DNA of 60,000 nt, taken from positions 13,518,001 through 13,578,000 of the forward strand of contig CM119372.1 in NCBI GenBank assembly GCA_051294905.1. Reading direction: 5' to 3'. The notes beneath the pieces were generated by a model, which worked only from the letters and a program-made list of their open reading frames with translations, made no database searches and had not been told where the DNA came from. This document shows positions 1 through 56,934 of this stretch, piece by piece; position 1 is the first letter of the stretch, and each line of letters begins with the position of its first letter. Origin of the DNA: Botryllus schlosseri (taxonomy: Eukaryota). The position numbers were made by a program, and so were the translations under genes.

Positions 1-261
1 TATTATTGATAAAATTATTCCGATTTAAATATCATAAAAATAAATAATTCTTCGAACCGATAGCAGACGATACAAAAAAAAATATTAGGATCTTGGTTGC
101 TTTCACACCCTATTTAGCGTCCCCTTGCAACGTATTAATTTTATTTATTACACGAGCTTTCGGAGCTCCGCTCCTTCTTCAGGTGTTAAAGGTGTTAAAA
201 ATTAATGATATTCGATCGCTGTCGCGTTACAATTGCATTTCGATTATCGTAACTTCCACTA
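1..261. mobile_element. Possible right end of a hAT-like MITE starting before the window
   Basis: Ends in ...CGATTATCGTAACTTCCACTA, resembling the TAG-type termini of other MITEs here. Left end and TSD not visible. Confidence 0.25.
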
Positions 262-894
262 AGTATAACCAATGTAGTTCTAAAATCGTAGACTCTGAGA
301 ATGTAGAAGTTACATCAATATTTTTATCAATTTGTTAATTTTCTGCGCTTCGGGAGGATGATCGTCACGCAATATCTATTTGACAGAATCATCATTGTAA
401 TTCAAAAATATGTAGCTTGTCTTGAAGCGACTTTACGATATGTAGGCTACGACACGCATTGTAACTTCAGGAAATCTGGTTATTTCTGATATAATGGACA
501 GCGGACACCTTGATATTGGCTAATGAAGCTAACGGATGTGACCCACAGATTGGCGGAGAAAATATAGACATTTGATTATCTGTCGCAAACTTATTGTAGT
601 TATGTAAAATTTATTTAAAGATATATCCCAATGCAGGTGTTTCCAACCGATGGGGATGCGACAGTGTGGGTTATGGTGGCTTATATCTACCATACGCATA
701 AGTTCGTCAACACCAGGAAGTTTATCTGACTCATGCAGTATATTCGGGGAGAGAGAGAGAGAGTCTTTATTTTCATCCAACCAAAATACATAACACACGG
801 CAGTGATGGTGGTACGGCATTTACATATGTAAATTGATGCTACCTTGGTACATTTAGAAAAATTACAAACCCTTCCTAGTTTTTGTGGGCTTAC

Positions 895-1019
895 CTCACA
901 TATCCATTTTAAGGAGGCGCAACATTCAGTGTACGCCTGTACGGTTACCAGTTCACTGCGCATTAATTTTATTGCGTGCTGTTCCATTCTGGCGGTCTTA
1001 ACTTTCACCAACAGCAAGT
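895..1019 (-). CDS. Candidate isolated coding exon of an unidentified gene
   Basis: Pyrimidine tract plus AG acceptor (gtctttctcttgtaaag), one open frame (LLLVKVKTARMEQHAIKLMRSELVTVQAYTECCASLKWICE) and a GAG|GTAAGC donor. No family recognised. Confidence 0.3.
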
Positions 1020-1080
1020 CTTTACAAGAGAAAGACTTATATCAAATTTTATTGAAGGAACAATTTTAAAGTGTATAAAG

Positions 1081-1400
1081 CATTAGTTCTCAACCTGGGG
1101 GGGCGCCCCCCTCCCCTTGGGGGACGTGAAAGCAACTGAAGGGGGTGCGATGAAGCGGTTAACGGAAAAAAATTTCGCGCTCTGCGTGATTTACCTCCAA
1201 TTCACGCATGTTTCTCTATTATATAGACCGAACATCATATTTTTTAATTCTCTCATCAACAGTCATAACCTTCCATGCCATCAAACAATCTGTTGTGGTT
1301 GCTAGCATCCCGGTTAGATTTTGTGATATGACGATAAGGGGGCGCGAAATTTTTCACTATCAGAAAGGGGGGCGTGTCCAAAAAAGGTTGCGAACCATTG
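1081..1400. mobile_element. hAT (Charlie/Buster-like) MITE
   Basis: Imperfect TIRs CATTAGTTCTCAACCT / AGGTTGCGAACCATTG. Perfect 8-bp TSD GTATAAAG at 1073-1080 and 1401-1408. Confidence 0.85.
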
Positions 1401-1744
1401 GTATAAAGGTTGGGAACCTATCTTATAATTTGACAATACCTTTGTTTTATGTAATTCCGTAGATTAGGTTATGCTAGCAGTGCGTTATCACACTAGATTT
1501 ACATGTCGTGAGATTCTGTTGTGATTTCCAAGAAATAATCCCGTGTGTATAGGCCTACGCCCTACATCATACGTTCCTACATCGCTGACGACATATGATA
1601 TAAAGAAACGGGGGATAGCATTGGTGCATCAGGACTGTTTAAATGAATAATTAATCTCATCCAAAATTATTAGAATATATACGCCGGAACATTTTCACAC
1701 ATCAAAAATAGAATATCACTTTAGAGGTTGGTCAAGTTTCGAAA

Positions 1745-1879
1745 GTATGGAAAAAGTATCAAATATGGTATGGAAGAATGTTGGTATGGTATGGAAAATT
1801 GTCAAGTATGGTATGGAACGATTGGGCAGGTATGGAGTATGGGAGATTCTCATTCCATTCCATACCATGCCATGCCCTG
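1745..1879. mobile_element. Terminal fragment of a (TATGG)n-rich MITE
   Basis: Run of GTATGG/TATGG units ending in CCATGCCATGCCCTG, a hAT-like CAGGG terminus on the minus strand. No partner end. Confidence 0.5.
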
Positions 1880-1972
1880 ATGAAAAGTAAAAAAAAGACA
1901 ATCAAGAGACTTTTTGGGGTACAGAACTTTAATATACATTTTAATAATATATTCATATTACAAATATATTAA

Positions 1973-2008
1973 AACCCGAAGCTTTTCGTGCCAACACTCT
2001 TCAGGGCT
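1973..2008 (-). ncRNA. Minimal type I hammerhead ribozyme motif
   Basis: Minus strand reads AGCC-CTGAAGA-GTG TTGG CAC-GAAA-AGCT-TC-GGGTT: intact core and 3-bp stem II, but stem I has a G-G mismatch. Confidence 0.65.
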
Positions 2009-2968
2009 AATCGTCGGCATAGAGAGAATTTCATAAACTTGCATATAACCATAACCATAATGTCCTATATGGTGTCGACACCAGACATGGGGTAATCGCG
2101 ATTAGTAATCGTAATCGATTACGACGATTACAGCATTTTCAAGTAATCGTAATCGCAATCGATTACATTCGAAAAAAATCCAAAGTAATCGTAATCGTAA
2201 TCGACTACTTCATATATCTAATCGATTTCTTTGTGAGAGATCGATTACTTTTTATTTGTACAATGAATATGACATAACCGAACATTCGTGAACAAGGAAG
2301 AGATATTATTACAGGTTGTTGATAGCGCAAGTGGCTGATTTACAAACGCCACTGCTCATTATTACGTCAGAAGTAGGCTATTAGCTTTGCTCGTCCTTGC
2401 GTAAGAAGTATCCACACGTAGTAAATATATATTCGATGTACATTGTTTTGTGATTGTTAGAACAGTGTGAGCCATGCCGTATATCAAGTTATCAATAAAC
2501 ACCAGACGCCACTATACCTCGCCGCAAGATCATAATCGAATCACCACTCTGCCTAGTTTCAAATAGTAACTCATGTATTGCTGTTTGGTTATGCTTAGTT
2601 AAACGCAATTTGACCGTTTCTGCTTGGCGAGCAGTAGGCCTATCTATGTAGTATACGTATGTATTTTGTACGCACACCGGACAAAGATTTGAAATTTTAT
2701 ACTCGTCAAATAAAACATTACGATGGTTAAAATCAACAGCTGCTGATATATATCATAACCGAGACGTTCTTTGCCATTTCTCGTAACGGCAGCTTGCAGT
2801 ATCTGTATTAAGTGGAAGGTAGAATTTTAAGTTCACTTTATTTTATTCTCATATGACTCTACTTGAAACGGGCGCCAATCGTTATTTCACAATTCTTCAC
2901 TCGACATTTATACCTGTCGCCATGGCCATCCAGTTATACACCATGTTAGCGTGGGTTGTAGGTACAAT

Positions 2969-4135
2969 CAGGACCAAAACAGCAATTCGTCCTCAACTCC
3001 AAACGTTGGTATTGCTAGGGTTGTAACCTAGTCACAATGTCAATCTCACTTTTATAGTTTTGACTCGAGTCAAGTCAAGTCAAGTCATTTTCAATTCATC
3101 CCCGAGTCAAGTCCGAGTCCAGGTCCGCTAGCATAGGGTTGAGTCCGAGTCATAGTGTTTGACTCGAGTCCGAGTCCAAGTCGTTATGTTCACAGATCAG
3201 TTTTCAGGTCAATCCGCTTTAACCCCCTTTTTCCAACTCTTCTTGAGTGATATAGAATGACTCGTATTCATAATATAGTAATCTTCATCAGTTATCACAG
3301 GTTACGGCCCTATTTCCAAGTATCAGAACTGATAGACGAAATACAAATAATGTGGTAACTTTACTATTCTTCGAAGTTACATGGAATGTCTGTCTTGGCC
3401 GTTCTAGTCTCGAGTCATGCAAAATGAATCGAGTACATGTCGAGTCAATACAAAAAATTTACGCATTTAAAAATATGACTTGAGTCAAGTCTAGTCACCG
3501 AAAAATTGCGACTCGAGTCATTACAACCCTGGGTATTGGGGCCTCATAGGGTGTAAGTTTTCAAGTTGATGACTTAATTTCGTCAATGATATTGGTAATT
3601 GCATTATATTGCTATTCATTCAGATTTACCCGTAGAGCTGGGGCACCTAATTCATAACTATAGCATCTGGTATGTTGTTATAATTACTTTATTGTATGTT
3701 GTTAATTCGTGAGCTCCCGTCTTTTATATAATAAAAAGATACTGTAGTCGCCCAAACGTAGCAGATTAAAAAAAAAACTTTCGTGAGACGCACACACAAA
3801 TTCTTATGTATTCCCTCCTCTGTGGGTGGCATTTGCATTGTTGGGGCTCAGATTTGAAGGACCGGACTATTCGTCACGCCCACAGAACGCGGCCACTGAC
3901 ACCGAAATGCCTATTCCTATAAATTATGCATGCTTTGATGGGGAGAAGTATGCATTTCAAAATCAAGCTATTTAGAGACATTAAATCACGAAGCTCGAAG
4001 AAAATTTTCAATTTAATAAACTCTCTTGAAAATACTCTATAATAATTTATGTTGATTTACGAAATACTTTTGAGTCCCCTTGGAGCTCGCTTCCGGTCCT
4101 ATTGGGGAGTTTGGGGTGTTGCAGTTACGGACCTG
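2969..4135 (+). mobile_element. CAGGACC-family element nested in the 2.4-kb element
   Basis: Ends CAGGACCAAAACAG...GTTACGGACCTG, homologous to 22648-23285 and 28986-29954. TSD not recognisable. Confidence 0.65.
3016..3531 (+). mobile_element. (C/T)AGGGTTGTAA hAT MITE with GAGTC repeats, third nesting level
   Basis: TIR TAGGGTTGTAA / TTACAACCCTG. TSD GGTATTGC/GGTATTGG (perfect CCAATACC in the 40377 copy). Free paralog at 9837-10338. Confidence 0.85.
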
Positions 4136-10338: not shown

Positions 10339-11166
10339 AGTGTAACAGTATAATTTGCTAGATAGTGATACAGACTGTTCCGTATATGATTCCCTAAATA
10401 GAACGCATATAACACCGAGCACACATAATGAATACCCCACCTATCCTGACTCAAGATTCCTCTAATACATGCTATTCGGTACGACAATCCTATAGTATTG
10501 TTTACGACTAATGATAACACCGCAATAGTTGTTTCATCCGAAAAGTTGTCAGAAATCCATTCATTTGGACATACCGTGCTGATGGTTGCTTGCCACCATT
10601 CAGGTTTATTCTAGGTTATAACACTGCAAATACGTACTAGCTCAACGTTATTACCATTCACCAAAGCCAGCTATCCCCAATTAAATGTCATTTTGCTAAA
10701 AACCTTCATTTTTCAACCCTTTTCCATAAGAGCTCATAGTAAGTTTGCCCGGGCTTGATGTTTGTTTACATCCTGCTGCAACCTGATTTGTTCGTGTCAA
10801 AGGTCACGTAAGTGTCTATTATATTTGTAATATTAATATATTATTAAAATGTATAAAAAAAGACAATACAAAAGCTACAAAATGAGGTGGCATGTGACGT
10901 TGTTCACGAGTACTTGGTAATCCATAAATTAGTTGTATGTTTTGTTTGTACATTATACGACTGTTATATTTAGTGAAGGTATAAGTTGTCATCCTGTATT
11001 TGAAAATACGAAGGGTAGGTCATGAACATTTTCCGCTTGGGAAAATTCATTCAAGTTTCTGCCCAGATGACAACAGTCAAATACTCAATTTTACTCTGCT
11101 GTTATCGGTTGTGAGCGTTGAAGTTTGTCGGGTAGCGAAGTGCTGCAGTAATATTTGCCTGGAGGC

Positions 11167-12189
11167 ATGAATCGCCGTTGGGCAAAATCAGCTGCTGCAT
11201 TGATATTGCTTACTATCGTTAGTCTTGCTTATTATTCATACCATGACTCTCAACATACGAATACTCCTGACGACTACAATACTAGGACTGGTGTCCAAAT
11301 TGGTCGTGCCGCCATGGCTTATGATAGCGAAAAGAATCAACGAAATGTGGCAGAAACATTTGGAATCATAGAAAATGAACCGTCTCGTAGTTCAACATCA
11401 AAGGTTATTTATAACAGGGTTGGGAAATGTGGAAGTAGATCTATGTTGAGCCTAATGTCGAAGCTTGCAGGAATCAATGAATTTACTTTGTTTGACTCAC
11501 GGATATCGAATCATACACAAGCGTCATTGAAAGAACGCCTGGAAATTGCTAGGAAAATAAGTACGATGCCTTCTCCCAGTATTTATACAAGACACCTCCA
11601 CTACCTGGACTTCGCGAAGTATGGGGTTGTTCAACCCATGTACATAAACCTTGTCAGGGATCCAATTGATCGTTTCCTGTCACACTACAATTATTTACGA
11701 TATGGTGATAACGTGAAAGCGGTGGGAAGGACCTATACAATGAGCAAGACAGAGAAAGAGATGGACATTAATGATTGCGTACTTGGCAATCACTCATTTT
11801 GTTCAAAGGAGAGACTATTCTACATTATCCCATACTTCTGTGGTCAAGATGTTCAGTGCCAGTCACCAAGTAAAGAGAGTCTACAAAGAGCTAAGATGCA
11901 TCTTCTTCAGAATTACCTTGTAGTAGGTTATCTGGAAGACTTTGCTGGGATGATCTATGTTTTAGAGACACTACTACCCGAGTTCTTCTATGGAGCGTCT
12001 GATTTGTGGAAGCAAATGTCTGATAAAGAAATAAAACGCACCTCGACATTCAAGAAATCTACCCTCAACCGGACTGCTCGTGAGGTTTTGCAGGTGAAGT
12101 TGGAAGAAGAATACGAATTCTATCATTTCGTGAAGCGACAGTTCAAAGCTTCGAAAAATCAGTTGATTTCTGCTGATTACAAGAACTGA
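11167..12189 (+). CDS. UST: Uronyl 2-O-sulfotransferase-like, type II Golgi membrane protein, single coding exon, 340 aa
   Basis: N-terminal TM (AAALILLTIVSLAYY). PAPS 5'-PSB motif YNRVGKCGSRS matches UST rather than HS2ST (YNRVPKT). Also YINLVRDPIDRFLSHY and RLFYIIPYFCGQ. First ATG at 11167. Confidence 0.9.
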   Translation: MNRRWAKSAAALILLTIVSLAYYSYHDSQHTNTPDDYNTRTGVQIGRAAMAYDSEKNQRNVAETFGIIENEPSRSSTSKVIYNRVGKCGSRSMLSLMSKLAGINEFTLFDSRISNHTQASLKERLEIARKISTMPSPSIYTRHLHYLDFAKYGVVQPMYINLVRDPIDRFLSHYNYLRYGDNVKAVGRTYTMSKTEKEMDINDCVLGNHSFCSKERLFYIIPYFCGQDVQCQSPSKESLQRAKMHLLQNYLVVGYLEDFAGMIYVLETLLPEFFYGASDLWKQMSDKEIKRTSTFKKSTLNRTAREVLQVKLEEEYEFYHFVKRQFKASKNQLISADYKN

Positions 12190-12346
12190 TTTGCATATTT
12201 AGAATATACTGCATGATCTAGGTACCGTATAATTCCATAATGGAACAGAAGTGGTCAATTATCTTGCCAACTATATTCATCTTACAGCAAATATTTTGCA
12301 TACAGGTACAATTATACAATTGTATAGTATATTCATATTGAAATGA

Positions 12347-12380
12347 ACCCGAATATTTTCGGCTGACACTCGTCAGGGGT
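12347..12380 (-). ncRNA. Minimal type I hammerhead ribozyme motif
   Basis: Minus strand reads ACCC-CTGACGA-GTGTCAGCC-GAAA-ATAT-TC-GGGT. Confidence 0.7.
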
Positions 12381-12426
12381 AATCGTCAGCAACTAGTGGA
12401 GAATTCTCTGTTAGTTGCTGACGATT

Positions 12427-12460
12427 ACCCCTGACGAGTGTCAGCCGAAAATATTTGGGT
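12427..12460 (+). ncRNA. Minimal type I hammerhead ribozyme motif (UU at cleavage site)
   Basis: ACCC-CTGACGA-GTGTCAGCC-GAAA-ATAT-TT-GGGT. Confidence 0.65.
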
Positions 12461-12636
12461 TCATTTCAATATGAATATACTATTCAATTGTATATTGAAG
12501 TTCTGTACCTCCAAGAAGCTCTTCAGGTACAATTATATTAGCAATTATAAAAATTGAACTAATTTTATAGTTTCTTTGCTGTTTTCTACTAAAGTGGTTC
12601 AGCTCTATGCTCTGTTGTAAGAGGCGGGCCTGAAAC

Positions 12637-14924
12637 CATAGGCGCCGAGTTACGGGGTGGCACAGCCACCCTATGACACACTTATGGGGTGGCGGTCACC
12701 CCATACAAAATGCTCAAAAGCCCACCGTCTGATTTCGAATTCCTATTGTCTGGCCAGTTCGATATGATTAGGGCTGGGCACAATGATTCGAGTACTCGAA
12801 TCTGAATCGAGTAATTATTTTAATGATTCGAGTCGAGTAGTAAAAGACGATTTTTTTCGAGTACTGAAATTATACGCTCATAGCCACCGAAAGATATTTT
12901 ATCAACTAGAATTATGGTTTCGATACTATTTTCCACTGTGGAAGCCTTAAAACCTTGATTGGCCGTATCCCAGCATACTAAACATATAATACAAAGCTAC
13001 TATTGTAACTGGATATACCACATTTCCGAAGTAATGATCCTCCCACAACATTGTCACAATGTGCAATGAAATCGGTAGGGTCGCAAAAATACCAAAGTAT
13101 CTTTAATATGATGTATAACAGGCATTATATTCTTTGTGGTGGCTTAAAAGGTACATATTTGAACTTTGACATAGTATATTCTGTTATGACGTCATAATGA
13201 GTGATACTCGCATACTCGACTCGACTCGAAGCATAATACGTGATTCAGAATCGAATCACTCAGGTATTCGATTTTGCCCAGCCCTAGATACGACATCAGC
13301 CCAACGAGATCATCAGCGCCGTCAATTAGCGAGTCCGTGATAACGCGTAAATGCCAACTATTTACCGGTAACCGGTACGAACGCAGCGCGAATAATTGCT
13401 TCGGCGACGACGACGAACTAGTGCTTAAAACGCCCCAATAAATTGTAATTCATGATAAGTAATCTACAATCGAAGCGACCTCGTTTACGACGTCGATTTC
13501 GACACGCGTGCGCTGAGAAACATCATCTCCTCCTTCGACTAGACGAGCGTATTCACGTTCAACTTCTCGTAATTAAATTATATTTGTTTACAGAATAATT
13601 CTCGAGTTAGTTTCGTGATAGTCTCTTCAATTGGAGCGCGAAATAGGACAGTGTGTTTGTGTATGCCTGCGAATTGAAAGTCAATCCTGCGCATATTCGT
13701 TACTCTAACAAGGCTTTGCTAACTTTTATCGGGAGAAGAAGCAGCTCAAACGTCGTTATAATGAGCAAACAATTGTCGCGATATCAGACTCGGAACCTCA
13801 TTGTGCTGTACGCAAGTTGAGGAATTACTGATTAGATGCGCGCTTTCTCGTTTGCTATCATCTGCAGGCTGTTAATTCTCGTCTGCTTTATACACTCGAT
13901 GTCACTTGTCAGTGTTTGATTTGTTATTAATACTCCGCATTGTGCAGTGCACGGCGTTGAATTACGTTGTCAAATATTGATGCGACACGAGATGCTCGGT
14001 GGCGCAAATTCTGAATTTATTCGATCATTGCTGGACGGACTCTATCGAGCGCAACTAATTCGTATTATCGATGCTGCGTGCTGCAAATTAACGAGAATCA
14101 TTTGTATGCGAAATTGGTCATTTATATCTGATCTGCGCTATCGTCGCTGGTTCGATTTAGCGCGTCCTCATCCTCATGCAGGCATGCCCGCTATAATCTC
14201 TGACATGAACAATCACGTGCACCAGGCGAGGCCTGATATCGTTACCAGCCTGAACTATCGAGCCTACGGCAGGACTGACACATGTGATAATATCGCTGGC
14301 CTAAACTATAGCGTTTGCTACAGGCCTCGCATGATTTGCATGCTATCTCTACTTATGCGATTGCTACGTCACACTGGCTTAAGACTGACAGCGTGAAATT
14401 GAATAACTTTGAATCTGCGCATTTGGCCACGAACAAACTCGAACGGGAGTAATTGATTAGCGTTAGCGCTAATATACGCACATCGGAAGATGTGTGTTAA
14501 GGCCGAGTTATCATAAGATGCGACAGGCCTGAATCACCTGAAATCGGTGCCATTACAGAACAGATTCCACAGCAGACTTCAATCGTATTAATTTGTGAAA
14601 TAGTTCGTCGTCACTGAGGTTGCGTATTCAATTGTTCGCGCGCGTCTGTTGGTGAATAGTTGATATTACAGCGAGATCGAGGAATCGCTAATTTACCGCT
14701 AGACTCGCTGGCGAGATCACGCGAACTTATACGCGTAAATTCGTCAACACGATGAAGCTTGTCCTATCCATGTATAATGGGCATTTACGCATGTACTTAA
14801 CCGTAATATATTGATGCTAACTTGGTAAATTTGAAACAATGTCATCCCCCCCTCCCCTTTTTATTCAAACCCCTCCCTTTTTTCATCTGGCCACCCCATA
14901 TAAAAGTAAAAGTCGGCGCCTATG
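12637..14924. mobile_element. 2.3-kb non-autonomous hAT-like element
   Basis: TIR CATAGGCGCCGA / TCGGCGCCTATG. Perfect TSD CCTGAAAC. CpG-rich interior. Confidence 0.9.
12769..13286 (+). mobile_element. TAGGGCTGGGC hAT MITE nested in 12637-14924
   Basis: Same TIRs as 6880-7295. TSD GATATGAT/GATACGAC (6/8). Confidence 0.88.
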
Positions 14925-38159: not shown

Positions 38160-40132
38160 CAGAGGTGGTCAAAGTAGTCAAGAAAGCTACTCAAGTAGAA
38201 GTAAAAGTAGTGACGAAAAAATCTACTCAAGTACGAGTAGAAGTACTTCTTCAATTAGCCACCTCAAACTACTTGAAGTAGAAGTAGATTTGACTGACTT
38301 TAAATCTACTCAAGTAAGTTAGTAGTTTCGAAAACTGTCTTAATTCGTTCGCATGGACTGTCAAAAGCTACGAATTGAGCTATACGCAAGGTGCAGAGAG
38401 ATTGATTCGTATTGATACATCCCAGGAAGTATCAATTTTCGCCAAAATAAGCATTCTTTCGCCTCATGGGATGCCAATTATAGTATAGATATGAAGATGC
38501 GATACTAACCCTTTGTTTCCTAGAATACCCCATTTTACAGAATACCTACCCCATATTATAAGGCCCCATTTTTAGGCGAAGAGCAATACGTACAAGTTGT
38601 ATCGGCTACGGTTTTATCACTTTGCGCGATTAGTATACGTTAATAACAAATATTGTGGATCGTAAAAGTTATATTTAGTGTAGCTTTATTTTCGGAAAAT
38701 AGAGGCATTACTACACTTGCTTTTATGCTTTAACATGTAAGTTCTGCAGACAAAAGAACTGAAAGTAATCAGAACTCTAAGCATGATACTCGCATCGCAA
38801 TTTAAAGTGAAATACGAATACCACTTCTTAAAAGCGGAAAATGTGTTTCATGTCTTTTGTCCATAAAGCTTCAAAGGTGATCTGCTAAAACAGGTGTAAC
38901 GTTCAAAAAAGCTGGATTTTCCAGATCGGCAACACACGAAATCGGCTGCTAGATTACGATATGACAGGTGATTGCTAGATTGCGAAACGGTAGTTTCAAA
39001 CGTTGTGGTGGGCCATATTTACTGTGATGAAATATTTGGTATGGCATCCTCTGTTGGGGGGCTGCCAGTAAAACTGCACTCAAGCCACTGCAGAAACTAC
39101 AGCATAAAGTGCTCCGAATCATAGCTAGGGCCCCAAAGGGGCCTGGCTGCCCATCCAATAAGTCGCTGCTGAAGAGATTCGGCGTCCTAAACATAGAAGA
39201 TATGCGGAAACTAGAAATCGCCAAGTTTATGTATCAGTTTCACTGCGGTCGTTGCCCCGAATATTTCAATGACTTCTTTACCTCTGAATCAAAAGCGCAC
39301 AAGTACAACACACGCGCGTCCACGTCGTCCAAATATCATATGATCGACCGAAAAGATCGTCGCTCCATCAAATATGCCGGACCTGATGTGTGGAACAGTA
39401 TCCCGCCGGCCATCCGACAGTCGACGAGCATGTCCACATTCAAGTCGAAATACAAGCAATTACTACTAAATAAATACAGTCCATCCTCAAGATTACCGGA
39501 CCACGACTGACCTATCGATCTCACTTCCCATGACATGTCGCCCTATTTCTTGTCGCATTCTTCTTCTATACTATCTTCTTTACTTTCATTCAGTGTGCAT
39601 GCCTCCTCTTTACATCGCCTAGGCCAAGGTGGGTGTCAGATTCCATAGACTACTCCTTGTCGCTTCGACATCTTCCTGTCTTTTCATTGTATCGCATTTT
39701 TGTGGTGTATTGAACTGATAAAATTGCTAATAAACCAATGATGATGATGATGACAATGCGGTGTGAGCGGAACCAAGCAATCCGGTACTTAAATTATATT
39801 CACTGATACTTTCGTGAAAATATATTTGTCACTCCATAACTACTGTGCACGAAGCGCAGCAAAATTTCTGGGCTTTACTTTACTTTTATGAATATTAAAT
39901 GTTGGTACTCCGTGAAAACAGCCCCGAAATTCCTCAGGCTATCTTTCGTACTGGAGGATTAGACTACTTCTACTTGACAAACTAAAAATAGCGAAAAGTA
40001 AGTAAGTAGATCACAAAATATTACGAAGTAGAAGTAGAGAAAATCAGATGTACTTGAGTAAGTAGCAGAAGTAGAGGAAAACTACTTGAGTACTTCCAAA
40101 AAGTAGAAGTACTTCGTTACTGACCACCTCTG
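38160..40132 (+). mobile_element. CAGAGGTGG hAT element, copy 2, carrying a LINE fragment
   Basis: Same TIRs, perfect TSD CGCGTACC. Inserted in the end of a Charlie-like MITE (...GTTTGAGAACCACTG ending 40158). Confidence 0.92.
39039..39753 (+). mobile_element. 5'-truncated LINE (CR1/L2-like) 3' end
   Basis: YGILCWGAASKTALKPLQKLQHKVLRII...stop at 39510, 3'UTR, AATAAA and an (ATG)n tail. Confidence 0.9.
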
Positions 40133-43200: not shown

Positions 43201-46200
43201 CTAGATACAGGAAATATCCATTTTAGCGACATTTGGCTATGAGTTTAATCCGTCTCTTTACTAGGCCTACCATAATTTGCAACGAACAATGGTCAATGTA
43301 AAAGTTTGTCAAATCATAATTTAGAACGGAGGGCATTACACAAGATCATACATTTTGCGATTTAATCTATTCTAAATGCAAGTTCGCTGAATCAGCTCAT
43401 TAAAAACCGTGTTATCTTATTGACAGACCGAACGATTTTTTTAATGAATACGGATTCGTATAAAACAATAGGCAGGCCTATCACTGCTAATTCCTATCAG
43501 CAGCACAATGACGGGAAACAATCCAAAATCCGAAAATATATACGCGGCAGTCAATTAAAGTGATTAAATCAGATTTACCTTCCTTCCTTTTGCTTTGTTG
43601 AAAGCTTCCTGCAGTTGAGGGTAGTGCGGCGTTGATGAGATGGGAAATGCTTCAAATCCCTGGACGACTGGCGTGTCGGTGACTTCGATGGAAGGGACCG
43701 GTTTTGTAGCCTTTTTGTCCCTGCTTTTAGATCTTGCAATCTTTTTATTTCTTTGCTTTGTTACCTTCTTCTCACGCTTTCTTCTTGTTTTACTTCTCCC
43801 CCGTCGTTCATCGGATGCGCGACGAAGCGGAAACACGCTGTGCACGAAACGCGGGAAACTTGAGGCTGACGACTTGGAGTTGGACGAACTCGTGCCTTCA
43901 GACTGTGACGTACTCTCGTTGGGACTGCTGCGGCCAGATGACGCGGTCGGTTTGGCCTGATCAGATACATCCGGTTCCACGTTGAAAAGTTTTGGCGTAG
44001 CACTTTCTGGTACGGGTGTTACCGATTCCCTCTGGACTTCAAGTAAAACCTTTGTCGAATCTGGTGGAGTGGAGGTTTCATCGGCGGTGAACCGAAATTC
44101 AGGAACACATTTTCTTTCATTATTCGGCACCGAAGCATCATCTTCGTTGTATTGAGATGGCACCGTGTCATCTCCTAGTTCAGCTGTGACTACAGGCGTG
44201 GCAAGTTGGTACGGAAGAACGCTGTGAACAAAATCAGGTACTCCCGGTATGAATTCTTCGCCCACCATTCGTGGTGAGGCAGACGGAGACCGTGATCGCG
44301 TCTTGACCTGTCGCCGCATCTCGCTAAATGGATCTCTGAGCTCGTTTCTTCTTTGACGTGATTGAATCCCACTATCATCTGGGAGTACCGCGCGATCATC
44401 ACCCATCATTTCCATATCCACAAGTCTGCTTTCTTCGTCAAGAAGAGTTTTTTGTGCGATTAATGCCGCCTCGACTGCTTTGATTTCTAGCTCGTCCAAG
44501 TCTTTGGAGCTTATTAGCGACAGTGGATCGAACGGCCAGCTGGGTATGAATGGCCTTTTCGCCAAATTTTCCTTGCGTCTTGGACTGCTCGGTTCTTCGT
44601 CGATAATGTTTCGAAACGCCATCGCCTGATGCTTTCCTCTGTTAACTTCACTCAAATCAATTTCAGATCTATTTCGAAGGTTGCGTTTCTTCGGCGGGGA
44701 TCGGAAAAGCACCCGAAATAAATCATCGTCCTCGTCTAACTGAGCACCCTCAGACCACGCCTTTTCGAGAGCATTTGTCACCAAAAGTTCGTCTGTGTCG
44801 TCGCTAGCAAGTGAAGCAATTGAGGTGCAACTTGACAAATCAAACTCTGGCTTCTTCTCCCTCGGTATCACCTTGTCATCCATGTCGAGAATGATGTCAT
44901 GTACTTTTCCAGAATTTTCGTCATCCATAATTTCCTCATCCAACTCCTCGATGGATAGATCGTCATCCTCGCCTATTGTGGCAGCGGTGGTGCTCGCGCC
45001 TCCGTCGTGGATTCTGTCTTGATGCGGCTTATGTACTACATCGTATTTCGATGTATCTTCGGCTGGCGGAAAAGCCGGACTCTGCTGTAGCGTAACATCC
45101 TCCGATTGGATTTGTGCGTTCTCGTCTTCACTGTGGTCGCTGACTTTTGCGTCGTCATCATTGTCTGCATACTGCTCACCGTAAAGTATGTCCTCATCCA
45201 GCTCCTGCATAGCTAGGTCTTCCTCGTCTCCTATGGTAGCGGCGGTTGTGCTCGCTGCCCCATCGATAGCTTTCTTTAGTTTGTACACATCTCCAACTCG
45301 AAAGTCGATACCTAAATTCCTGCCCGAAGTGCGGTAGGGCGTATCTCTTTTTCCGCTTAAGATCGGGCTGCCCTGAGAGCTCTTAGGGTCGCTCGACCCG
45401 TTTCCTCCTCCCGTTGAAGTATTGTTTTCTTCCATATTCTTGCTGGATGGTGTCTCTTCAGCAGGGGCAGTCTTCCGATAAGCAGTAACATGGGCATCAT
45501 CTTCATCTGCTGATTCGTTCGTATCAGACTTGCCATTACAATTAGACTGCATTTCCACAGAACTGGCATAATCTTCGCTCTCTTCCGTTGATTCTTTCCT
45601 CGCTTTTGGCACATATTCTCTGATGGTCTTAAATTCCTCAGCGTCTTCCTCACGGTTTTCGGGTGCTGGAATAGGATCCAGTGTAAGTTCGAAAGGATCG
45701 TCAGAAGGCACAGCTTCTTCTACATCACACCTCGCGTCATTGGTTTTGCCATCAGTTGTATCGTCTTCTTCAGTGCCTGATGTCGATACCGATGGTCTTT
45801 CACGTTCGTGCAGAAATTTCTCATCGTCGCTTGCTTCATCAGTAACGAATCTCACGTCTTTCTTAGGCGCTTGGGCTTGCGTTGATTGTAGATCCTCCCA
45901 CTCCTCAGTATATTCGTGGATGTTTTCGTTAAACTCGGGAGGATCTTGGCCGACCGGATCCAACATCGTGTCTACGTCTAAATCCGTTTCAATTGGTTTC
46001 TCCGTCGACTCGGCTTTATCACTTGCTGCTTCCGTATCATCTTGCAACGGGCTATATTGGATGGGCTTTCGCGGATAGGAAACCGCGTATAATGCATCCA
46101 TTTCCTCTTCCTCTTCGATGGTTTCTGCGAATAGGGGGGCTGGGGAGTCACGACGAGTTGAATCCAAGATTGCGTCGGTTAAATCGTCATCCGTGTACTC

Positions 46201-49200
46201 CCGTTCTTTTTCTTCGGGACGTTCTTGGAGTGTGTCTCCTACCTGCTCGTATCCGCGATCATCCGGTGTTTCCAATGCTGCTGTGAATGCCGCGTCTGCT
46301 TGGACAGGAGAGGTTAGTGATTCGATTGCGGGATTCGTCACTTTTGGTCGGGTATCTTCAGAATTTGTGACTTCGGTGTTGCTAGGATTTGATTCCGATC
46401 CTCCTGAAGGCATCTCTTGAACGACACGATCTTGGACGCTTTTCGGTTTGCGAAGACTTCCAACTCTGGTCTGTGAATATACGGAATAAATGTAGAAACA
46501 GATTCAAAGGGACGAGTTCGATCTATGCGGATATTACAAGTGTTCAATCACCCACATATTTAGGTTTCAACGGTACGGCGAGAATATTCCAGCTAAATAC
46601 CTACCACATTTGGAGGAGGACGCTGTATGCTTTCACTTTCTTCTTTCACGTCGGTCTCCGTTTTTGGACTTTTCTTCTTAGAACTGAGCCTGCGTAGAAT
46701 GGAGCCCTTCCTCCTGTACGAAAAATTTGATTGTCATCTCTTGCTAAACACGAGCTTTGATCGATAGGCTTATACATGAAAAGAACTCCTTATGTAGCTG
46801 ATGATCCAGGATACAACAGCTGCTACAGAAAATTTCAGCCGCGAGTCGCCAAGGCAGCCAGACCAAAAAAGGAGTGAAAACATGAGGTATCGCCACTATA
46901 AGTGTCACAGGGTGCAGTGTAAATAACTACTACATACCAACAACGTGTATTGTATATCAACGAGTGTATAGGGTCAAGTCACCGGTCAAGTCATTAAGTC
47001 ATTTCAAATAATCATGTTCCACGGAAACGGTAGGCCTACTCGTTGAATAAATTTATACATTGTTATAATGATATTATATTACCAGCTAAGGCTGGGTTGG
47101 GCAAACTACGTCCCGCAACAACATTTTGTGCGGCCCTCGAAAGCCCGGAGAAGCGTTATGAAATTGTTGAAAGTATTAGAAGTAAAATTCGAATGAATCC
47201 CACGACTAGTATAACCAAGACAATGCAAACGATCTAAAAATCCAACCTCTACAGTACACCCAACTGCTATTGTGGACGGCTATACCTTGTCCTGGATATT
47301 GTCATTTTTGACCACACCGCGTTACTCTTAAAAATTACACGATTCATCGATATTACGTAGATTATGGTTACCATATATTGGAATCGGGAAAGGAGGACAC
47401 CTTTTCAAAATTTTCTTACTCAGAATCTCGGAGGTAAATCTTGAAAAATGGTTTTTCCCACTTCGCGATCGGTTGACTAAAAAAGGTCATCTTTCCGGCT
47501 CAGCTATCGAAATAGCCACCGGATCGTTACTTCAGTGATGATTTACTGTATCTCAGTCGAATTTGGCATCATATTTAACCAAGATCATCAAAAAAGAGGA
47601 CAAACTCTCAAAAAGGAGGACATTTAGGCGTCCTCGGAGGACATTTTCAAAAACCTGAAAAAGGAGGACAAATCTTCCTAAAGGAGGACGTATGGGTAGT
47701 CTTAACGTAGATGGGATCGCAGGTGAAATTGCGGAAGAAGTGCAAGCTGAAAGGACTATATCCAGAAAACATGAGATGTACTCGAATTCCCGCGTTTTGA
47801 TTGGGGATTCGTTCCGAACGCCTTAATTATTTTTTGGACCGATCCGGGAGAGCCCCCGACCCGAATTCCTAGTCTGAGTCTTAAATTTTCGTACCCAAGT
47901 CCACTTCCCAGCTACCTGAATGGTCGAAACAAAAACAAACAAAAACGCGATCGCTGGTATGGTACAGTGTAAGAAACTTTTTGATGAACTTACTTTTTCC
48001 GCTTATCGGAATCTTTATCCCCAACGCGGTAAAATATATGATGGCCTACGGCATTCTTCCACATGAGTTGAACCTGGTCCTGTGAACCAAATATAAATGA
48101 CTTCTTTAACCTCGGATCCCCATTTGGTGGTGCCTTTAGAAGTTTTATCTTGAATTTATTATTTTTGTGAACAATGTTTTTTATCCGAGACCAGGTGTGT
48201 AGAACAGGGATTTGACCTTTGCGATTTTCAACTACGCCCTTCGAGGATATTCCAATCAAAATATCGCTTCCCGACTTTTCCTTGCCGGCGTAAAAGTGCA
48301 CGCCGTAAAGTCTCAGAGAAGCGGCAGTTAAGAGAAATTCTCTTTCCGCATCAGCACTCGACAGACCATCATTGATTTGGCATAATGACAAAACGCGATC
48401 TACGAATTCGGGATTTGATACTTCGTTGTGGATCTTCGCAATATCCATCACGCAAAGTTTTACAGTTTCCACGGAAATATCTGATCGGTCGCACTCTGAC
48501 TTCTGCCAATATGCGATCAGACTGGCAAGTTTGTCGACTGAGCATTCCAAATGCACACCTAGATCTTGACGAATCTGTAGACATATTTGATATCTGTCGA
48601 GACAAAATACACGTGAATCAACAAGCTGCTACTAACTGGCTGGCTTTCGGGAAACATTTCCTACCATGGTGACACCACGCATGAAGTCAATTGACAAAGT
48701 ATTGAAGGTAGACACTATCGTGATACAACATAGAGAACTTATATCCACAAATGATGCTGTGTGCTCTCATATATAAATTTTTTCATGACAGGGGGTGCAC
48801 TTACAACGAACAAGAGGTTTTGTGATCACTGATCAGGATAAGTTAATCACATATCAATATCAGAGACTTATCATATCGCGAAATGCAATTTGTTTAATGT
48901 GTAGGCCACGCTCGGGAGGGAATTGAGCATATGGGCGCAGGGATAGGAGTTGTAGATCAAGGATTTATAGAATATATATCGTTGATATGATTCGTTGCTA
49001 TTTCAATATTAAATGCTCATTGTTCACTGCTGCTACTGTGAAGTATGTGATTGTGAGGAAACAAAACAATGATTTGGCGAGCCGGCGGGTTTATAATCAC
49101 AACGATGTAGCCTACTGTGGAGCAATGTTCCCTCTAAGCTGCGCACGTGCGCAAATGCGCAGTGCTGAGACTGTCTCTGCGCACAGAAAATCTATGTTGC

Positions 49201-54205: not shown

Positions 54206-56934
54206 CGGGACCTACGATACTTACGGCCTAATATGGCACATTACACTTGCAGGATATACGAGGCCGACACTCCCAAACAGACATCACGATTGACTCAGCG
54301 ATTGTTTTACTTTGCTGGTCGAAACTACTAAATGCCTCCCATCTTGAAGCGAAATGCACTCATTTCACTCTGTGAGATCTAGCTAGACGGTTGCATCTGT
54401 TTATATGCTGCTGTATTGACCGTCTTATACTTATAATACAAGGTAGGCTACTGTGGAGTTGCGATTGCGCTATTCACATTTTGAGGCAAGGTTTTCGAGC
54501 TATAGTCGCTAAGTTAGAATTATTATTTAATGATGTCACGATCAGCTATTACCGTAGTAACAACTCTGTACGATTGCAGTGAAGGTATGTTCAGGAGCCG
54601 TTTTGACCATCCGGTAGCATCTAGGTAGGTAATTCTGTATAGCTGGAAATAATACTTCATGTTGCACTAGTTGCAGTATTAAACAAACTAATATCGGCTA
54701 GAATTCATGGTGGTATTTTATGCGGCATTTATGACAGTGAATTTTGACATATTATATGTATGTTTGACGATGCAGGCTTGGCTTAATGTATAATTGAACG
54801 TTAATGGTCAACAAATGTTGTGTTTATGGCTGTAAATCTGGATATTTAACTACTGAACAAAAAGTTTTGTCGTTTCACTTTCCATTTGACGATGCGGAGT
54901 TACAAAACAAATGGATATCTTTTGTGAATTGGCGCGATTGGAAACCAACTCTCAATTCTGTAATCTGTGAATTGCACTTTGAATCAAAGTACATCACCGA
55001 CTCATGCTTGCGAAAACGACTACGTTTGGAGGAAAAACCAGTCCTAGTGAAGGCACTGCCAGAGACCGAAATTACAGGAACTTGGTTAGCAGAGGAATTG
55101 CTGGATTGCATTGCTACTCTCAATCGGCATGGATTTGCCGTTCGAGGACTTGTGTCGGATAATCATTCTTCCAATGTAAAAGCATTTGGATTAATGAGAC
55201 AAAAATACCCTGGAAATGATGAGTTCTGTTTTCATCATTCATCCTACGCCAAGAAAACATATATATTTTTCGATACTGTACAGTGTACATCTTGTAAAGA
55301 GCATATGAAAAAATTTACTCCGAGCCAAGAAATTCATTTTTTCTCGATTCTCATTCATCATCGCCTGGTGCATTCGTTGCATGGGGCGATCTTCACAAGA
55401 TCAGGGAATATGATGATAAGCTGGATTCGAATTTGTGTAAAGCGCCAAAATTGACATTTTTGCCTCATTGCATCCAAGCAATATCAAACAGAATGTCAAC
55501 TTAGCTCTTGCTCCATTCCATGAGTCAACTATTGCAGCTTGCAAAAGTTGCTTGCCTCACAGGGAAGATATGTCTTCATTTTTGAGTCTTACTAATGCTT
55601 GGTGGACACTGGACTGTGGACAATCATCAATTTCTGTCCCATATTTTCGGCAAACCCCTAGGCCAAAGCAGTGGTCTCACAAGATGCAAAAATGGATTCT
55701 TTACAAGACTGTGCTAATTGGCTTGTAAAATGGAATGGATATAACCCCCAGAACTATTGTCTATCAACTGTCAAAGCAAACCTTGAAAGCTCCGATTGAA
55801 ACCCTGCAGCTCAGTCACTACTTATGAAAGATCCGTTTGAAAGAAGGTTCTCGTGCTATAGGCAAATGAGTGGGGGAGATTTCTGATGGGTTTAACAGAA
55901 GTTACCAATTTTGAAAAGATAATTCTGCTTCGTTTCATCCCAAAAATTGAGGTAAACTACTGGGAGCATGATATTGGTGTTTCAGGTTTAACTCATTTTG
56001 ATCATTTCAAACAAGTGATTGCAGATGTGGCGATTGAAATTACCGAATCAATTCTATCTCCTGACAACGAGGAGGTGTCGTATGTTGTGGCTGGGTACAT
56101 TGGTAAGAAGGTCCTCGAAAAATTGTCTTGTCAAATATGTTATGAGTCCTTTTTTGATGAGTCCTGTGGCGCAAGTTCACGTTATTTCGACTTGCTCGGT
56201 CGTGGGGGGCTGCTTGCTCCCTCAGAACCACTCGCCAAGTTTGTTGCATCCAGTTTTTCAATCCTAGATGGTCTGATAAAATCATCTGCTCTCACCCCCA
56301 AGTCGCCGTGAGAGAAGCTGGTCAATATGTTTTGCATCGTTTGGGGGGGGGGACCTCAAGTCTTGCATGCTGTGATCATCGAGATCGAGCTTTAAAATTG
56401 GCGGGCAAAATCATTGTTAACATATATTATAATAACAAGCAGAAGCTGGTAAATGCCTCTGTGAGAAGAGATGCTGTGGAGGACTTTAAATAGCGGCAGT
56501 TGAGCAAGACGTAGTTTACTTACTGCAGTAATTCATTTCACTTGCAGAACTTCTATGGCTAAGCTTCACGTATGTGTTTCAGAGTAGTTCCAAATGATTG
56601 AATTTCATTTTCACGTGCTTGAATTCGTTTTACCATGCTGTTAAATGCTTTTACATGCCCAAGTTGGGGATTCTCGTTACATTGTCTTCTTGTGTGTTGG
56701 TGGATAAATACATTGCGATGCTGTTACTTGGCTCTTAATTGGGTTGTTTCATCTGAAAGTACTAATTTTGCCTGTTATAAGACTTTATTAGACTTGTATG
56801 GCGAGGCGTCTGGTATCGAGAAGTGAAATCGCAAGCAATCATTGAGTCAGTCGTGATGTCTGTTTGGGAGTATCGGCCTCTTATATCCTGCAAGTGTAAT
56901 GTGTCATATTAGGCCGTAAGTATCGTAGGCCCCG
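54206..56934 (+). mobile_element. Internally deleted P-superfamily (THAP9-like) DNA transposon
   Basis: ~100-bp TIRs starting CGGG(A/G)CCTACGATACTTACGGCC. 7-bp TSD GTTACTG. Confidence 0.9.
54804..56514 (+). pseudogene. P-element/THAP9-like transposase, frameshifted
   Basis: THAP domain (CCVYGC...FP...W...ICELHF), GFAVRGLVSDNHSSN, YIFFDTV, KQNVNLAL, DPFERRFSCYRQMSGG, VAGYI...CQIC...GGLLAPS, spread over several frames. Confidence 0.85.

Follow-up and report, generated by a model that had tools for sequence, protein, structure and literature searches.

The window analysed here, a stretch of 60,000 nucleotides from the genome of Botryllus schlosseri, contains a long hairpin that is bounded by direct repeats and carries a hammerhead ribozyme motif on each strand, and the question it raises is whether this is a minimal mobile element that travels as a unit or a fragment of a larger one. 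The initial annotation of the sequence proposed the former, a discrete non-autonomous family composed of ribozyme, hairpin and tail and mobilised by a Penelope-like retroelement (PLE). We favor a different account, to which we give a probability of about 90%: the hairpin is a head-to-head insertion, dead on arrival and severely shortened at its 5' end, of an abundant PLE that has full-length copies with open frames elsewhere in the genome. We also consider it likely that the hairpin was built during a single insertion, and was not copied from an earlier hairpin. Hairpins of this kind are easily mislabelled as MITEs, microRNA precursors or non-autonomous families, although this single locus, with thousands of other remnants of the same known class beside it, carries little weight by itself.

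The geometry of the insertion agrees with the annotation after small adjustments. A perfect 14-bp direct repeat encloses 207 bases made up of two inverted arms and a tail on the right arm only (Table 1), with arms of 87 nt each rather than about 83, and a tail of 33 nt rather than about 30; a repeat-finder called the arms at 91 nt with 95% identity, four bases of the direct repeat lengthening the arm. The target-site duplication (TSD) may itself be up to 6 bases shorter, between 8 and 14 bp, because the element also matches four bases at one end and two at the other. The predicted fold of the + strand has an energy of -158.2 kcal/mol (z = -22.7), and none of 200 shuffled sequences was equally stable. 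The copy thereby combines an inverted 5'-truncated copy, a one-sided tail within the 30-40 bp range and a TSD, as a PLE insertion unit does. The two arms are mismatched at five positions. Four of these are G-T on the + strand (12351/12456 and 12395-12397/12410-12412) and would remain as G-U pairs in a sense transcript of the neighbouring gene, an arrangement with a chance of about 1 in 8.

Table 1. Features of the hairpin insertion, in window positions; numbers with a sign are relative to the ATG of the parent frame.
Feature	Position	Strand	Basis
Left TSD copy, 14 bp, last 4 bases also matching the element	12303..12316	.	direct-repeat and element comparison
Inverted arm, tail-less, 3' part of the pseudo-LTR (pLTR), about -69 to +19	12317..12403	-	arm mapping
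Type I hammerhead motif, left arm, including leader pairing with loop II; UC as in the family consensus, C17 being the complement of 12351	12347..12390	-	core 20-mer and alignment
Junction, self-complementary AATT common to both arms	12402..12405	.	spanning 22-mer unique in the genome
Direct arm, 3' part of the pLTR, about -69 to +19	12404..12490	+	arm plus tail 97.6% identical to the pLTR-frame junction of a full-length copy over 124 nt
Type I hammerhead motif, right arm	12417..12460	+	motif alignment
Right motif, leader	12417-12422	+	
Right motif, stem I	12427-12430 with 12457-12460	+	
Right motif, core	12431-12437	+	
Right motif, G10.1	12438	+	
Right motif, loop	12440-12445	+	
Right motif, C11.1	12446	+	
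Right motif, GAA	12447-12449	+	
Right motif, palindrome	12450-12455	+	
Right motif, position 17 (T; C in most copies)	12456	+	
Parent RT-endonuclease frame, first 18 codons (last partial)	12471..12523	+	tblastn, residues 1-20, 95%
Tail, right arm only, 33 nt, codons 7-18 of the parent frame	12491..12523	+	match to a full-length copy
Right TSD copy, first 2 bases also matching the element	12524..12537	.	direct-repeat and element comparison

A similarity search of the 495-Mb genome returned 2,075 candidates, 40 of which were scored, and extension of 18 matches led to a full-length copy of the parent (L049). It has an open frame of 845 aa between two direct-repeat pLTRs of 167 bp that are 100% identical, with the start codon just after the hammerhead, and the right arm and tail of the window copy match the junction of its pLTR and frame (Table 1). 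The frame encodes a reverse transcriptase (RVT_1, E 6e-9, above the cut-off) in which DKG and YVDD motifs are visible, and a search of solved structures with the protein returned one reverse transcriptase match (E 0.0014) and two weaker ones. The GIY-YIG-type endonuclease region of L049 scores 14.1 bits, under the Pfam cut-off of 22.6, whereas that of a sister family with 69% identity reaches 24.1 bits and two homologues (P0012 and P0077) also pass; C-x-C and two His residues, the CCHH motif, can be seen by eye in this region of L049. Tandem pLTRs are present at L135/L136 and other loci. Judged by these sequence features, the parent belongs to the canonical EN+ PLEs, which combine a reverse transcriptase, a GIY-YIG endonuclease with CCHH, tandem-type pLTRs and a pLTR hammerhead. 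We see no Cys-rich linker between the reverse transcriptase and the endonuclease of L049 by eye, which would fit the Penelope/Poseidon clade as PMC8557442 describes it. Of 13,319 candidates 54 were scored, and these include seven full-length copies without stops (98-100% identity), two at 88%, and the sister family at about 69%; an exact 25-mer of the hammerhead core occurs 4,621 times genome-wide. L049 and the other full-length copies supply the autonomous partner with reverse transcriptase and GIY-YIG domains that the annotation had predicted. The sister family (L160, L161 and L163-L168), at about 69% protein identity, has many open frames of 848 aa and a hammerhead core with U3-A8.

How the window copy relates to this parent is best judged against other head-to-head insertions, and we compared 59 such pairs, a small part of the family, leaving out 13 duplicate loci. 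Twenty-eight, including the window copy itself, were picked by likeness to it and are biased toward short, similar forms; the other 31 come from 80 loci on chromosome C1 chosen by core motif alone. The tail is present on one arm only in 58 of the 59 pairs, on neither arm in one, and on both in none. Direct repeats of at least 10 bp (10-16 bp) flank 29 pairs, as against none of 59 shuffled flank pairs, and measure 12-13 bp in 22 of these; the remaining 30 pairs have no exact repeat of at least 10 bp. The duplications have a GC content of 26%. The one-sided tail, inverted pLTR copy, TSD and Penelope origin read from the window alone are borne out by the parent match and this survey, as is the existence of other TSD-flanked copies. 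Insertion lengths range from 118 to 2,990 bases in the 31 motif-picked pairs and from about 120 to 3,000 overall, and the arms form a continuum that extends up to nearly full-length elements.

It is against this continuum that the mini-element has to be weighed, in which a 207-base hairpin would be transcribed and re-inserted as a unit by a Penelope protein. There are many short hairpins of similar size, with both arms inside the pLTR in 10 of the 31 motif-picked pairs, which are free of the length bias, and the idea has precedents: rotifer pLTR sequences sufficed for trans-mobilisation (PMC3846280), and non-autonomous PLE derivatives have been described, MRC1 (PMC8557442) and the retrozymes (10.64898/2026.07.22.740005) among them. 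A hairpin propagated as a unit would, however, be expected to keep its fold point, and the 22-mer that spans the window junction occurs once in the genome. A degenerate form of the junction carrying the common alleles was found nowhere genome-wide, although the window copy, which has a private change, does not fit that pattern either. Only one pair among the 59 has an identical junction (L110/L115), and these two loci also share kilobases of flank and are a duplication; three further pairs lie within 2 nt of one another in both arms, but their junction sequences differ. Because the lengths are continuous and the junctions vary between copies, the hairpin appears to be the small end of a continuum that is remade at each insertion. 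We found no set of independent copies that share internal structure and junction, and with a unique junction, a continuous range of lengths and a tail that is the start of the parent frame, the discrete non-autonomous family of the initial annotation does not hold up; we regard it as very improbable, while noting that re-copying of hairpins could occur rarely beyond the pairs surveyed. Nor is this a non-LTR retrozyme, in which the hammerheads are head-to-tail and of the same sense. Two further readings, a hairpin gene of microRNA type and a MITE-like DNA transposon bounded by long terminal inverted repeats, are refuted by the match to the Penelope-like parent. The inverted arms are long and Rfam microRNA models score on their shape, but every such match is below the gathering score; the arms consist of pLTR sequence of a retroelement, the two ends lack symmetry, and the center differs from copy to copy.

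Two models could explain how a single event gives rise to inverted arms with one tail, and this genome has intact, recently active copies and enough insertions to separate them. In the first, the element's endonuclease would make a staggered cut in the target, and both cut DNA ends would prime reverse transcription on one RNA, with one start at the pLTR end (about +17) and the other at the tail end (about +52). In the window the two copies would have halted after about 90 and 120 bases and then been joined through the self-complementary AATT; across the family the products would be joined through microhomology or short filler. The hammerhead would be a passenger, carried along because it is located 15-55 bases before the parent ATG. 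The second model is self-priming, with the same parent and an equally dead product, in which the nascent strand folds at the AATT palindrome and copies itself, and the endonuclease resolves the end so as to leave the tail on one side. Arkhipova et al. 2013 favor this second route, with an antisense template, to explain junctions of this type (PMC3846280), and PMC8557442 attributes the tail to resolution by the endonuclease.

Several observations bear on the choice between these. In the window copy the inner ends are equal, the junction between them is perfectly palindromic, and the arms share alleles, as self-priming would predict, but the majority of junctions in the family are not palindromes. 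Measured from the ATG, the outer arm ends group around +17 and +52. As for the inner ends, in the 58 tailed pairs the tail-less arm extends further inward in 35, at times by hundreds of bases, and the tailed arm in 20, while the two are equal in three. A strand that started at the tail and then folded back could not give a longer tail-less arm without later deletion, and fold-back of one cDNA from the tail end is therefore not expected at the 35 loci, although later deletions could shorten either arm and weaken this argument for two-ended priming. In vitro, the PLE protein of Anolis, a predicted dimer, was found to cut both target strands and to extend both, and its start sites are two internal positions that bracket the tail (PMC11167929). 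On balance we lean slightly toward two-ended priming on one RNA, as in twin priming, on the evidence of genomic patterns, and regard self-priming as rather unlikely. A search of titles and abstracts returned no description of twin priming for PLEs.

The use of two different RNAs in one insertion can be ruled out for 12 informative insertions, where the arms differ at none of 147 diagnostic non-CpG comparisons, as against 39% between insertions; the exception is the old, duplicated insertion L110/L115, with differences at 11 of 36. Coupling of the arm lengths is not significant overall (rho 0.21, p 0.25, 31 pairs), and inner ends lie within 20 nt of each other in six pairs compared with 2.3 expected (167 of 10,000 shuffles). 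Microhomology at the priming sites averages 2.1 nt at each end compared with 0.5 in a one-sided control, which is a hint only as the control understates chance. We also note that the junctions of L009 and L051 contain short tandem reiterations of element sequence, with units of 8 and 10 bases, which suggests repeated slippage during joining, and that the arms of very young, long inverted insertions differ at one of 1,458 (L051), none of 559 (L055) and none of 1,048 (L075) bases.

The two divergent type I hammerhead motifs reported for the window are confirmed, one per strand, in the two arms. A 20-mer of the core occurs twice in the window, at 12357-12376 (-) and 12431-12450 (+), where 0.01 occurrences are expected, and both arms have the conserved core, stem I, G10.1-C11.1, A15.1-U16.1 and the UH of a type I hammerhead. 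The corresponding match to an Rfam hammerhead model did not appear at E up to 10, and all that Rfam gave for the hairpin were microRNA models that fell short of their gathering scores and a single weak match to something unrelated. The cleavage position is UC in the left motif and UU in the right, which need not abolish the predicted activity of the + strand motif since related families also show UU or UA. As the motifs are on opposite strands, any one transcript has a single motif together with the antisense copy to which it pairs, and because a read-through transcript would form a long hairpin, cis-dimer cleavage is not expected. A transcript of the whole insert would fold into a long hairpin that buries the ribozyme, and the window copy, ribozyme included, is probably inert. 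An apparent hypermutation of the cleavage base, a hint of cleaved and re-ligated templates, proved to be an excess from sampling by likeness to the window copy: T occupies this base in 9 of 120 motif-picked copies, comparable to nearby C positions, and the cleavage-site CpG shows only a small asymmetry genome-wide (254 C>T, 177 G>A).

The family ribozyme is predicted to have a stem I of four pairs, a stem II reduced to the single pair G10.1-C11.1, and a stem III formed by a six-base palindrome. We aligned nine motifs, one from the window family, three from other families of the same genome, and five from metagenome contigs encoding related proteins. Loop II pairs with a leader whose start lies 14 nt ahead of the core, giving a 6-bp pseudoknot; 88.9% of cells in this helix are paired and five of the six pairs have changes on both sides, although two rows are off register by three bases, which may explain part of this count, and three are misaligned in stem I. 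The stem III palindrome varies among families, yet is self-complementary in eight of the nine motifs, and four of the nine have the switch of the core from C3-G8 to U3-A8. The search pattern required the closing pair, stem I and the core switch from the outset, but it set no condition on the leader-loop helix or on the palindrome. A decayed copy of an included family (L164+) and repeated copies of included families were left out of the alignment, as were two motifs with a longer stem II and no pseudoknot at the same register (L236 and L247); given the latter, the pseudoknotted one-pair stem II is not universal in PLEs. Loop II can alternatively pair with the core, and the predicted minimum-energy fold of a single arm is this inactive form.

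A hammerhead with a 1-bp stem II and a covarying 6-bp pseudoknot would be a modest addition to what is known of these ribozymes. A search of titles and abstracts found no pseudoknotted hammerhead of a PLE, although Lunse et al. 2017 or the supplements of PMC4209133 may already show one. We hold more tentatively, as a possibility of somewhat less than even odds, the combined proposal that a two-headed protein carries out twin priming with one end at each start site, which would leave exactly one tail, on either arm, and matching alleles, and that the hammerhead of this clade has a one-pair stem II replaced by the 6-bp leader-loop pseudoknot together with a dimer-type stem III. The thousands of young copies in this genome would make both claims testable by counting.

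Much of this organization has precedents, and the insertion layout and the close opposite-strand hammerheads are already in print (PMC3846280, PMC4209133). Canonical EN+ PLE units such as Pen2a_Av of Adineta vaga similarly have a pLTR and an adjacent inverted 5'-truncated copy, a tail of 30-40 bp confined to one end (31 bp in Pen2a_Av, 33 in the window copy), an overlap of the tail and pLTR end with the first codons, a duplication of about 8-14 bp, heavy 5' truncation and a parent frame of about 840 aa (PMC3846280, PMC8557442); the window copy departs from the typical units in being at the short end, with no coding body between the arms. The hammerheads described in PMC4209133 share the 4-bp stem I, G10.1-C11.1, a palindromic stem III for dimers and the U3-A8 variant (seen here in the sister family), but have a helix II of 7-8 bp with an extra base before 10.1, whereas the motif of the window family has a single-pair stem II and a loop that base-pairs with the leader. 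The same report ascribes opposite-strand motif pairs about 100-700 bp apart to probable truncated PLEs, which resemble the window pair, although the window cores start just 55 bases apart.

The Poseidon element PAc of Anolis (Frangieh et al. 2024) offers a second comparison, in that its frame starts at the hammerhead, two reverse transcription starts bound the tail, and its targets are AT-rich; the PAc start codon is at stem II, before the cleavage site, whereas the first ATG here is 15 nt after it, and PAc has been tested in vitro (PMC11167929). Base pairing that links loop II, or the flank of helix II, to the side of stem I is also a feature of the pseudoknotted hammerheads of Perreault et al. 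2011, who predicted it for about 40% of hammerheads, types I to III included. Among their tested examples is one, a metagenomic ribozyme of type II, whose stem II has a single pair (PMC3088659); the window family differs from that example in being a PLE and in joining such a stem II to a dimer-type stem III. The non-LTR retrozymes are likewise short, non-coding and related to PLE pLTRs, with type I hammerheads, but form head-to-tail tandem repeats with two same-sense ribozymes, whereas the window copy is head-to-head with one ribozyme per strand (10.64898/2026.07.22.740005).

The insertion site lies close to a gene, an intron-free sulfotransferase frame at 11152..12192 (+) that ends about 110 bases before it (Pfam Sulfotransfer_2, E 9e-12). 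In one raw RNA run there are few reads on this gene and none across the unique left flank of the insertion. A contig from run X1 extends from 12682 to exactly 12524 and then for 76 further bases, and a contig from X3 continues into the tail, a hint of presence/absence polymorphism. At 12769-13286, 230 bases to the right of the insertion, lies a repeat of high copy number that ends in 16-nt terminal inverted repeats and is probably a MITE. Elsewhere in the window, an old single-arm PLE remnant with a tail lies at 1904-2030 (-), with 78% identity to the main family and a stem III palindrome that resembles that of the sister family. A frame at 39031-39510 (+) has no Pfam match but resembles the C-terminal end of a LINE reverse transcriptase, and a THAP-domain frame at 54798-55454 (+) is probably a fragment of a P-element-like transposase. 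A long acidic frame of 979 aa at 43564-46503 (-) and a FERM-domain exon at 47990-48628 (-) are possibly parts of one gene.
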